DNA of 4,923 nucleotides, taken from IMG/VR virus record IMGVR_UViG_2541047861_000004, one strand, 5' to 3'. This document shows positions 1-2,900 of this stretch, in pieces. Position 1 is the first letter of the stretch; each line of letters opens with the position of its first letter. A program made the position numbers and the translations under genes. A model generated the notes under the pieces. The model did not search any database and had not been told where the DNA came from. It saw nothing but the letters and a program-made list of their open reading frames with translations. The DNA comes from a virus (Duplodnaviria; Heunggongvirae; Uroviricota; Caudoviricetes).

Positions 1-2
1 GC

Positions 3-197
3 ATCAATGGTCTTTACAAAGCGGAGGTAATACACCGTAAGAGCTGGAAAAACCGTGCAGAAGTGGAACTGGCCACACTCACGTGGGTGGACTGGTATAA
101 CAATCGACGATTGCTGGAAAGGCTGGGCCATACTCCTCCGGCAGAAGCAGAAAAAGCTTATTATGCTTCCATCGGAAACGATGATCTGGCAGCCTGA
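3..197 (+). CDS. IS3-family transposase OrfB, C-terminal fragment (5' end outside window)
   Basis: Translation INGLYKAEVIHRKSWKNRAEVELATLTWVDWYNNRRLLERLGHTPPAEAEKAYYASIGNDDLAA, stop TGA at 195-197. The WxxWYNNRRxxxxLG motif is typical of the C-terminal end of the integrase-like catalytic domain of IS3-family transposases. Confidence 0.85.
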   Translation: MNGLYKAEVIHRKSWKNRAEVELATLTWVDWYNNRRLLERLGHTPPAEAEKAYYASIGNDDLAA

Positions 198-214
198 GTT
201 CACAGATAAAACAC

Positions 215-239
215 TCTCCAGGAAACCCGGGGCGGTTCA
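215..239 (+). repeat. Terminal inverted repeat (IRR) of the IS element
   Basis: tctccaggaaacccggggcggttca; reverse complement TGAACCGCCCCGGGTTTCCTGGAGA, starting TG as IS3-family ends do. The partner repeat lies outside the window, so this cannot be confirmed here. Confidence 0.6.
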
Positions 240-290
240 GACCTCTCCGCGCCGCCATGATTGTCTTTCTCCTGATGCAGGAGGCCAATA

Positions 291-485
291 ATGCTTAGCC
301 CATCTCAATCCCTTCAATACCTGAAAGAAAGCATAGAGCGGGCTTCAATGTGCACAGAGTGGATTCTATCTAGGTTTAGCGCATACAGAAGATTGCCGGT
401 AAAGGGCATGCCAAGCAAGTCGATGCTGCATATGCAAAAGAATGCGCGCTGGAAGGTATGGCGAGAACACAGGTTATGTGGCTGA
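291..485 (+). CDS. Hypothetical 64-aa ORF with strong Shine-Dalgarno; possibly a chimeric or spurious ORF at a mosaic joint
   Basis: ATG at 291 preceded by AGGAGG (280-285) in the spacer window. I do not recognise the product. Its 3' part overlaps the ybcO-like remnant in another frame, so both cannot be genuine. Confidence 0.3.
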   Translation: MLSPSQSLQYLKESIERASMCTEWILSRFSAYRRLPVKGMPSKSMLHMQKNARWKVWREHRLCG

Positions 486-508
486 AAGAGGGGGTTATTA
501 AGGCGTGA
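380..508 (+). pseudogene. ybcO: ybcO-like (DUF1364) 3' remnant with no start codon
   Basis: Frame-2 translation [42 protein letters not shown] ; the last ~27 residues match my recollection of the YbcO C-terminus. In-frame stop at 377-379 and no ATG/GTG start between it and the conserved part. Its stop (506-508) overlaps the rusA GTG start (505-507), as in the DLP12 ybcO-rusA junction. Confidence 0.45.
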
Positions 509-867
509 ATACCTACAGCATCACATTACCCTGGCCTCCGAGCAATAATCGCTATTACCGCCATAATCGCGGGCGCACGCACGTCAGCGCAGAGGGGCAG
601 GCATACCGCGATAACGTCGCCCGAATCATTAAAAACGCAATGCTGGATATCGGCCTGGCTATGCCTGTGAAAATCCGCATTGAGTGCCACATGCCGGATC
701 GCCGTCGCCGTGACCTGGATAATCTGCAAAAAGCCGCTTTTGACGCACTCACTAAAGCAGGTTTCTGGCTGGATGATGCTCAGGTCGTTGATTACCGCGT
801 TGTGAAGATGCCTGTTACCAAAGGTGGGAGGCTGGAACTGACCATCACCGAAATGGGGAATGAATGA
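505..867 (+). CDS. rusA: RusA Holliday junction resolvase (120 aa), GTG start
   Basis: Translation [120 protein letters not shown] matches RusA as I recall it. The residues I recall as catalytic (D70, D72, D91) and K76 are present at those positions. Start is GTG at 505. Confidence 0.93.
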
Positions 868-1661: not shown

Positions 1662-2744
1662 TTAGAACTGATAAACCAGACCTACAGCGACGATGTCGTC
1701 GGTATCAATACCAGCTGTTTTGGTAAACTTACTATCGTCAATTAAGTTGATTTTGTAATCAACAAAAGTGGACATGTTTTTATTAAAGTAGTAAGTAGCA
1801 CCGACATCGACATACTTGACTAAGTCTCGGTCACCATGAACACCAAGGTCTTTACCTTTTGACTGAAGGTAAGCAACAGATGGACGCAGACCGAAGTCAA
1901 ACTGATATTGTGCTACTGCTTCAAAGTTTTGTGCTTTGTTTGCAATATGGTTATTACCAAAAACGGTCATATTCTGAGTTTCAGAATATGTGGTAGCCAG
2001 ATAGATATTGTTCGCATCATATTTCAGGCCTGCAGCCCATACTTCCGCATTTTTGCCGGAGGCATTGAATTTGCTCTTACCATAGGCGACCTGACCGTCA
2101 GTGCGATCTGATTTAGCATAGGTTGCACCCACGCCGAATCCTTCATACTCATAAGTAGTGGAGAAACCGAAACCATCACCATTGGCTTCAGTTACGTCAG
2201 TGCGGTCATTTTTACCCTGATACTGAGCAGCAAAGTTCAGGCCATCGACCAGACCAAAGAAGTCGTTGTTACGATAAGTTGCAACACCAGTAGTGCGACC
2301 AGTCATGAACACATCTGTTTGGGTCCAGGTATCACCACCGAATTCTGGCAGAACGTCAGTCCACGCACCGATGTCGTATGCTACACCGTAGTTACGGCCG
2401 TAATCGATTGAGCCGTAATCACCAAATTTCAGGCCTGCAAATGCAAGACGGGTTTTGTCTTTGGAAGAACCTTGAGATTCAGCACGGTTGCCTTTGAATT
2501 CATATTCCCACTGACCGAAACCAGTCAGTTGATCGTTGATTTGGGTTTCACCTTTGAAGCCAAGACGGGCATAAGTAGTATCACCATCATCTGCATCATT
2601 AGAGGAGAAGTAGTGCTTGGCATTAACTTTCCCGTATAGATCCAGCTTGTTACTGTCTTTATTATAAATTTCAGCTGCCTGAGCAGACATCGCCATCAGT
2701 ACTGATGCAGCTACAGCAGAAATTGCCACTGTTAATTTTTTCAT
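1662..2744 (-). CDS. nmpC: Outer membrane general porin of the NmpC/Lc/OmpC family, apparently intact (360-aa precursor)
   Basis: Translation from the internal Met gives signal peptide [23 protein letters not shown] then mature [17 protein letters not shown]...; motifs [25 protein letters not shown] and C-terminal GLVYQF align with OmpC as I recall it. The ATG at 2804 in the ORF track is rejected because it would place 20 residues ahead of the signal peptide. Confidence 0.92.
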
Positions 2745-2900
2745 TGTACGCCCTTTTTTTGAACTATTATTAAAAAATGATGTCACTGCGCGATAAATAT
2801 TCATCTAATCAATGTGATTATTTCAAGATGTAAGTTTTAGTTTCTCATTTAATTTGTGAAGTAGATCTCTATTTTTATCTGAACCTTTTCTATCTAATCC
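2745..2900 (-). promoter_or_regulatory. Porin gene promoter/5' control region with OmpR-box-like motif
   Basis: AT-rich. Minus-strand sequence corresponding to plus coordinates about 2808-2827, CTTACATCTTGAAATAATCA, resembles the OmpR site consensus as I recall it (TTTACATTTTGAAACATCTA), roughly 60-85 nt upstream of the ATG. No clean sigma-70 -35/-10 pair could be fixed by eye. Confidence 0.3.

Follow-up and report, generated by a model that had tools for sequence, protein, structure and literature searches.

In P22-like phages, the nin genes are arranged in the order ninE-ninX-ninF-ninG, and ninX and ninF overlap by 8 nt. The NinF protein is defined by a cysteine-rich core, CxxC...CxxCC, which corresponds to the 25-position Pfam model and occupies residues 20 to 44 of the 58-amino-acid protein. 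In lambdoid elements of the phage 82 and DLP12 type, the corresponding part of the genome carries ybcO-rusA-ylcG-Q, in which ybcO (orf96 in phage 82) encodes a putative nuclease of the DUF1364 family (PF07102). Insertion sequences of the IS629/IS1203 group are about 1,310 bp in length and have TG...CA ends, inverted repeats of about 25 bp, a two-ORF transposase with a programmed -1 frameshift, and 3-bp target duplications. Junctions at which alternative modules of the nin region are joined have been described, with rusA replacing rap/ninG downstream of orf/ninB (PMC4118853). In Escherichia coli K-12, rusA is normally quiescent and is switched on by IS2 or IS10 insertions upstream of it, known as rus-1 and rus-2 (PMC1636454; PMC4118853).

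The window analyzed here, a stretch of 4,923 nucleotides from a virus record (IMGVR_UViG_2541047861_000004), covers the part of a DLP12-like lambdoid prophage that is concerned with late regulation and lysis. With annotation taken from identical copies in E. coli Nissle 1917 and FY26 and from the DLP12 prophage of K-12, its order is an IS end, a ninX remnant, the region at 240 to 508, rusA (505 to 867), ylcG (864 to 1004), quuD, a porin gene, essD, rrrD, rzpD/rzoD, and borD. The nmpC/ompC-like porin gene (1662 to 2804, minus strand) is intact in the window (PGAP "porin OmpC," 360 aa), whereas it is split by IS5 in K-12 DLP12. The region at 240 to 508, which is bounded by the right end of an IS629/IS1203-like element (position 239) and by rusA (GTG at 505), had drawn attention in an initial annotation due to its conflicting coding signals. 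We are confident that this region marks a fossil recombination joint, located among the nin genes of a lambda-like prophage related to DLP12, and that its 64-aa product is most likely a functionless by-product, because this product lacks the cysteine-rich core and its gene shows no purifying selection. The features on which this reading is based are as follows.

1 to 239, plus strand: right end of an IS629/IS1203-like element (IS3 family), recognized by identity to the FY26 copy and by its terminal inverted repeat
240 to 298, plus strand: ninX remnant, with the translation of the Nissle 1917 NinX C-terminus
279 to 284, plus strand: ninF ribosome-binding site (AGGAGG), which falls within the 3′ end of ninX
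291 to 485, plus strand: chimeric 64-aa ORF, made of a ninF stub, the filler, and the ybcO 3′ end out of frame
291 to 353, plus strand: ninF-homologous segment, 94% nucleotide identity to As3
354 to 418, no strand assigned: orphan 65-bp filler, restricted in the searches to this junction type and the AU6Stx1/EHEC type
419 to 508, plus strand: 3′ remnant of ybcO (DUF1364), 97.2% identical to K-12, partial according to PGAP
505 to 867, plus strand: rusA, intact, 120 aa, GTG start, Pfam RusA at 82 bits

A search of the plus strand between 240 and 505 for a consensus promoter or terminator found none.

A P22-type ninX/ninF start joined to the 3′ end of ybcO

The ninX remnant consists of the final 19 to 20 codons of the gene (positions 239 to 298 translated as RPLRAAMIVFLLMQEANNA, followed by the stop codon TAG at 296 to 298), the bases at 238 and 239 (CA) being assignable either to the IS end or to ninX. 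In translation, it matches the C-terminus of Nissle 1917 NinX (113 aa) at every residue. The Pfam NinX model (PF10765) gave 14.3 bits on the remnant (cut-off, 22.6) versus 62.1 bits on the intact Nissle protein, and a full-length NinX of about 113 aa is absent from the window. The ninX stop overlaps the ATG at 291 by 8 nt (ATGCTTAG), and exactly the same overlap is found in Salmonella phage As3 (ninX at 1182 to 1514 and ninF at 1507 to 1683). The frame of ninX is also that of the YbcO-like stretch farther downstream, frame 2 of the initial annotation. That annotation had instead coupled the ATG to a stop in frame 1 (taATG); the TAA at 289 to 291 does exist, but it ends a mechanical ORF (55 to 291) that runs out of the IS, and the real upstream gene is ninX in frame 2.

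The 64-aa ORF at 291 to 485 is present with the AGGAGG-ATG start that had been described for it, the AGGAGG (279 to 284) being located 6 nt 5′ of the ATG; phage As3 has AGGACG at the homologous position. The ORF ends with TGA at 483 to 485, 19 nt upstream of the first base of the rusA GTG. Positions 237 to 353 are 94% identical to As3 (positions 1453 to 1569 of the retrieved As3 locus, L006), and they cover the 3′ end of ninX and the first 63 nt of ninF, with the ninF-homologous segment comprising a start codon and 21 codons. Consistent with this, 17 of the first 22 residues of the product are identical to As3 NinF, and the similarity ends at residue 22. The product had been regarded as one that could not be placed. 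Its N-terminus can in fact be placed as NinF, but the rest of it is unrelated to that protein. The ORF thus resembles NinF of lambda and P22 (PF05810) in its ATG and ribosome-binding site, in following ninX directly with the 8-nt overlap, and in residues 1 to 21/22 (MLSPSQSLQY.KES.ERA), whereas the cysteine-rich core and the acidic tail are missing and 43 unrelated residues stand in their place. The Pfam NinF model did not match the 64-aa ORF even at an E value of ≤1, while it matched the As3 control at 50.4 bits over residues 20 to 44. Neither NinF nor the 64-aa ORF is represented by an NCBIfam model.

On the right side, positions 419 to 560 are 97.2% identical to K-12 ybcO (from nt 202 of 291) and rusA, and the alignment to DLP12/K-12 ybcO that had been proposed as a check places the breakpoint at window position 419, corresponding to ybcO nt 202. 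A tblastn search with intact YbcO/orf96 likewise found similarity beginning at the V of VDAAY (VDAAYAKE). The stub that remains comprises the final 29 codons and the stop; its frame has no start codon and is preceded by stops at 371 to 373 and 377 to 379 (both TAG). The initial annotation had read a YbcO-like C-terminus over 380 to 508, without a start and preceded by the latter stop, and this description holds except for its extent, since only 419 to 508 is derived from ybcO. We ruled out that 380 to 418 is a divergent ybcO allele, because intact YbcO from E. coli and from phages of Klebsiella, Enterobacter, and Cronobacter reads CHDEIDRRT(H/R)(F/L)VDA at that point (with all variants, ...CHDEIDRRT(H/R)(F/L/L)(V/T)(D/E)A...).

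The Pfam YbcO model matched the window only at profile positions 62 to 92, with 17.7 bits (cut-off, 29.9), compared with 144.8 bits for K-12 YbcO; the complete domain of about 92 residues, with its Cys/His-rich N-terminal part and its own start, is not there. PGAP annotates 419 to 508 in Nissle 1917 and FY26 as an incomplete "DUF1364 domain-containing protein" with the N-terminus missing. In comparison with YbcO and phage 82 orf96, the stub retains the last 29 codons and the GTGA overlap with rusA at 97% identity to K-12, but it lacks the start and, with the 67 N-terminal codons, the conserved Cys/His motifs, in agreement with its status as a partial pseudogene in PGAP. The stub also holds the Shine-Dalgarno sequence of rusA (GAGGGGG, 488 to 494) in addition to the GTGA stop/start overlap. 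RusA itself (PF05866) matched at 82 bits over residues 9 to 114 of an intact 120-aa ORF with its own Shine-Dalgarno sequence and is annotated by PGAP in the identical copies. On the other hand, the final 22 residues of the 64-aa ORF are the same ybcO 3′ end read out of frame. This tail, ...MLHMQKNARWKVWREHRL(S/C)G, represents an alternative frame of ybcO, because it also ends the frameshifted full-length YbcO proteins (P0017 to P0020).

The orphan filler

The 65 bp at 354 to 418 contain the dinucleotide TA at 400 to 401, which is a recurrent breakpoint (see below), and a stretch resembling an IS100 target at 394 to 403 (TTGCCGGTAAA). The filler is too short for protein searches. When it was used in blastn searches (word size, 11) of 50,697 phage records, 72,556 plasmids, and 5,426 E. 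coli genomes, only two junction types were found, and a word-7 blastn search against the nin regions of As3, K-12, and ev207 gave no match. The junction type of the window, at ≥95% identity, was present in 585 complete E. coli genomes and 27 phage records; the other type, with about 89% identity (88 to 90%), occurred in 249 genomes, most of them EHEC. The latter is represented by the Stx1 phage AU6Stx1, in which an unannotated stretch just after ninE is 88% identical to window positions 325 to 425. In this phage (1977 to 2101 of its locus) and in the 249 EHEC-type genomes, there is a diverged copy (88 to 90%) of ninF codons 12 to 21, the filler, and the initial bases of the ybcO stub, which then breaks off into a moron region with a 524-aa protein encoded on the opposite strand.

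Among 97 loci representing 24 haplotypes, the 92 bases at 352 to 443 (the filler and its immediate flanks) were invariant, 23 of them being fixed by the search pattern, whereas the ninF part had 8 polymorphic sites and the ybcO part had 9 sites with 10 variants. This pattern fits a situation in which the flanks import variation from homologous alleles in other phages and the filler has no such partner. Read in the frame of the 64-aa ORF, the polymorphisms were 7 nonsynonymous and 1 synonymous in the ninF part, 6 nonsynonymous and 4 synonymous in the ybcO part, and none of either kind at 352 to 443. The AU6Stx1 copy differed from the window by 8 nonsynonymous and 4 synonymous changes in each of the three frames. 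There is no indication of purifying selection in the polymorphism of the ORF.

Distribution and probable formation of the joint

At least 583 of the 5,426 complete E. coli genomes have the stretch from 238 to 900 as one contiguous piece, and the top matches listed are all 100% identical, among them Nissle 1917, UTI89, S88, APEC O1, and ATCC 25922. The 27 phage records with the joint include phages with K-12 as the recorded host, and ev207, ev017, 2G7b, PhiR11_1, and mEp332 are among the carriers; a scan of GTDB representatives added one further locus of the window type. Two of the carriers illustrate the arrangement free of the IS. Nissle 1917 has ninE, ninX (113 aa), a partial DUF1364 gene with the N-terminus missing, and rusA, and phage ev207 has genes for NinE, DUF2591/NinX, a 195-bp "protein ninF," and RusA.

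As the sequence shows, a P22-type left module (ninE-ninX-ninF) was joined to a phage-82/DLP12-type right module (ybcO-rusA-ylcG-Q), and this joining removed all that lay between ninF codon 21 and ybcO codon 68, leaving the 65-bp filler. Because the translation start of ninF survives (AGGAGG, a 6-nt spacing, ATG, and the ninX overlap), ribosomes probably still initiate at 291. They would then read 21 codons of NinF, the filler, and the 3′ end of ybcO in the wrong frame, and would terminate by chance at 483 to 485, which is 2 nt before the Shine-Dalgarno sequence of rusA and 19 nt before its GTG. Such translation may even benefit rusA-ylcG-Q, as about 200 nt of otherwise untranslated mRNA would be covered by ribosomes, limiting polarity. 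The ybcO stub was probably kept because it carries the ribosome-binding site of rusA. The IS629-like element cut ninX at 239/240 later, in this genome, and did not contribute to the joint. Like the nin-region junctions described previously (PMC4118853), this joint connects alternative modules, but it is located inside two genes instead of at gene boundaries and includes a filler without an identifiable source.

Is the joint a broken gene, an IS product, or a new gene?

The mosaic joint suspected in the initial annotation is therefore borne out, with a P22-type ninX/ninF 5′ end, an orphan filler, and a phage-82/DLP12-type ybcO 3′ end followed by rusA. That annotation had also considered an accumulated frameshift within a nin-region gene or a frameshift introduced by assembly, given that two frames each hold a part of a recognizable protein, and a frameshifted or misassembled ybcO (or other nin gene) would be restored by a single indel. 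However, no indel restores any single gene here, because ybcO lacks its first 201 nt and ninF its last 37 codons; homology to K-12 begins abruptly at 419, and the sequence 5′ of this position does not give YbcO in any frame. An assembly error is excluded by the 100% identity of 238 to 900 in many independent complete genomes, which number in the hundreds, and isolated phages, and we consider that this alternative has practically no chance of being correct. Hardly better are the prospects of an IS-mediated deletion that fused ninF to ybcO. An IS629-like element does lie 50 bp upstream, and four other genomes have such copies elsewhere in ninX, in some cases next to a deletion, but the ninF′-filler-′ybcO joint is identical in prophages and phages without the IS, and the IS boundary at 239/240 is inside ninX, at neither of the two joints. 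An older, since-lost element at 353/354 or 418/419 is possible.

A more serious alternative, although we still regard it as unlikely, is that the 64-aa ORF encodes a small phage protein that is real and under selection, representing a new NinF-like variant whose C-terminus is helical. The ORF is open in each of the 97 loci and in 24 of 24 haplotypes, always with exactly 64 codons, it has a very strong ribosome-binding site (AGGAGG plus ATG), and viable phages carry it. In RefSeq, it goes by the name "protein ninF" in the records of ev207 and ev099 (NC_049949, 1507 to 1701 of its locus; NC_049953) despite the absent NinF domain; judged from the sequence, this name for the 195-bp ORF is a misnomer. 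AlphaFold2, run on the single sequence with no alignment, confidently predicted a two-helix hairpin (pLDDT, 84.5), a model that is weak evidence either way as to function. Against a selected protein, the likeness to NinF is limited to residues 1 to 22 and leaves out the cysteine-rich core, the last 22 residues come from an out-of-frame ybcO end that is 97% conserved, and the nonsynonymous-to-synonymous counts of 7:1 and 6:4 reveal no constraint. A search of 5.8 billion proteins found only near-identical copies of the ORF together with fusion and truncation variants, and in natural variants (P0002 and P0005 to P0010) the ORF is truncated or replaced. PGAP leaves 330 to 405 without annotation in the 59 listed genomes that carry the filler. 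Since several spurious ORFs of 65 to 78 aa are found nearby among the mechanical ORFs, the length of 64 aa is ordinary by itself, and the nonrandom part is the inherited ninF start signal. The question of whether the frame 0 or the frame 2 product has a conserved full-length homolog thus receives a split answer, as neither is a conserved full-length protein. We retain the fossil joint with a by-product ORF as the preferred reading.

The IS629/IS1203-like element upstream of rusA

The right 239 bp of the IS are in the window and are identical to the copy in FY26 (200 to 240 also in a direct nucleotide comparison with the FY26 IS end). They include the 3′ end of the transposase orfB, with its stop at 195 to 197, and the terminal inverted repeat at about 215 to 239, ending in ...GGGGCGGTTCA. 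The FY26 element is 1,310 bp in length as measured between its TGAACC... and ...GGTTCA ends, has inverted repeats of 25 nt with a 92% match, and encodes a transposase with a programmed frameshift and an AL1L pseudoknot according to PGAP, which labels a 95.6% relative as "IS1203 family." In four other genomes, the same IS is found in the same orientation elsewhere in ninX (loci L002, L125, and L126 among those seen besides window 1 to 239): 41 bp further upstream than in the window in FY26 and NCTC11151, which share the same offset, 144 bp upstream in BEN5202, and 235 bp upstream in strain 51489. The left flank of the IS is a truncated replication gene in FY26 (and NCTC11151) and IS66/IS110 remnants in BEN5202. 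Strain 51489 has a simple insertion with a 3-bp target duplication (GAC), the sole simple insertion among the ninX copies compared. The exact IS/ninX junction of the window was absent from the 5,426 complete E. coli genomes.

The distance from the IS to rusA is 265 nt, and the transposase gene is oriented toward rusA. By analogy, this arrangement recalls the classical activation of rusA by IS elements, which suppresses ruv mutations. It resembles rus-1 and rus-2 of K-12 (PMC1636454) in having an IS close upstream of rusA in a DLP12-like prophage with the transposase directed toward the gene, but the element is IS629-like and not IS2 or IS10, and there is no consensus promoter between it and rusA.

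A recurrent breakpoint at TA 400-401

About 120 loci containing GGGCATGCCAAGCAAGTCGATGC were collected, and in these, eight different left flanks abut the same block, TAAAGGGCATGCC..., which starts at the equivalent of window position 400 (401 in one case). The loci that document this endpoint (window positions 399 to 404, with the TA at 400 to 401) are L007 to L013, L018, L028, L081, L101, and L127. The left flanks are ninF′-filler (the window type), lambda P at codon 47, lambda P at codon 33, an Sf6-type cro, a sequence from the int-xis side (L018), a second junction 23 nt further along this same sequence (L101), a ral-side sequence, and a site in the left operon (L028). One more left flank, the ninth (L115), has its junction at a different place, near window position 377. 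All of the left partners are collinear with the lambdoid early region, and the junctions are therefore internal deletions, of very different sizes. In each of the six testable cases, the native partner continues with TA, giving a 2-nt microhomology.

There are also deletions that extend rightward. In L127, window position 401 is joined to 954 via a shared TA, the same dinucleotide, and in L129 and L130, position 476 is joined to 953 via a shared TTA. These three variants have lost the ybcO stub, rusA, and most of ylcG, and they reveal a second reused breakpoint, the TTA in ylcG at 953 to 955.

Several explanations for the fixed endpoint were rejected. A small mobile cassette starting at 400 was ruled out, as the right side is collinear with the window for 3 to 4.5 kb wherever the locus is long enough and no shared right end is present. 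Slippage driven by a hairpin at 400 was rejected in view of an unremarkable DNA fold of 370 to 450 (z = +0.72). IS629 was rejected as the cause, as no IS629 end joined to 400 was found either with a chimeric query of the IS629 end and T400 in the 5,426 genomes or by a pattern search of IMG/VR.

One IS100 insertion was found at the site. IS100 belongs to the IS21 family, is 1,954 bp in length, and generates 5-bp target duplications. In one draft E. coli genome, it is inserted exactly between the equivalents of window positions 403 and 404, as seen at the left junction (1603 to 1724 of locus L128). Given the 5-bp duplication, the right flank of this insertion would start with GTAAAGGGC, so that the expected right junction reads ...CCGTCGTTGACA immediately followed by GTAAAGGGC; no IS100 junction at this site, including this one, was found in IMG/VR. 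Six IS100 copies (L131 to L135 among the loci) share the left-flank motif (T)TGCC(N)GTA, and window positions 394 to 403 fit it, which suggests, from sequence comparison, a target preference that is matched at the hotspot.

Loss of IS elements with adjacent deletions and 2- to 4-nt microhomology has been documented for other IS families (PMC9943667), and an action of IEE has been demonstrated for the IS3, IS1, and IS30 families, while IS21/IS100 is only listed among the circle-forming elements (bioRxiv 10.1101/2023.06.07.543989). The junctions at 400 to 401, at least eight leftward and at least one rightward, resemble IEE-promoted IS excision in having one fixed endpoint, a variable other endpoint up to kilobases away, and joints within the 2- to 4-nt range of microhomology, with IS100 located exactly at this site in one genome. 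They differ in that no IS is left at the deletion joints, and the link to excision is putative. We tentatively suggest, at somewhat less than even probability, that TA 400-401 is a genuine hotspot of prophage deletion, at which IS100 repeatedly inserted into a preferred target and was then lost with adjacent DNA, a recurring and site-directed way of trimming lambdoid prophages while rusA, Q, and the lysis genes were kept. We hold the IS100 explanation only provisionally, because neither an IS100 right junction nor an IS629 end was found at the site.

Implications

The joint is a real and ordinary mosaic scar of a known kind, and public genomes already carry a PGAP annotation for it, a partial DUF1364 pseudogene. 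Its value lies mainly in annotation hygiene, in that the apparent coding conflict is explained and the RefSeq label "protein ninF" is recognized as misleading. The recurrent breakpoint is the only part of the finding that might repay further work. If true, a deletion endpoint that recurs with nucleotide precision and is linked to an IS target site would provide a concrete mechanism for prophage domestication.
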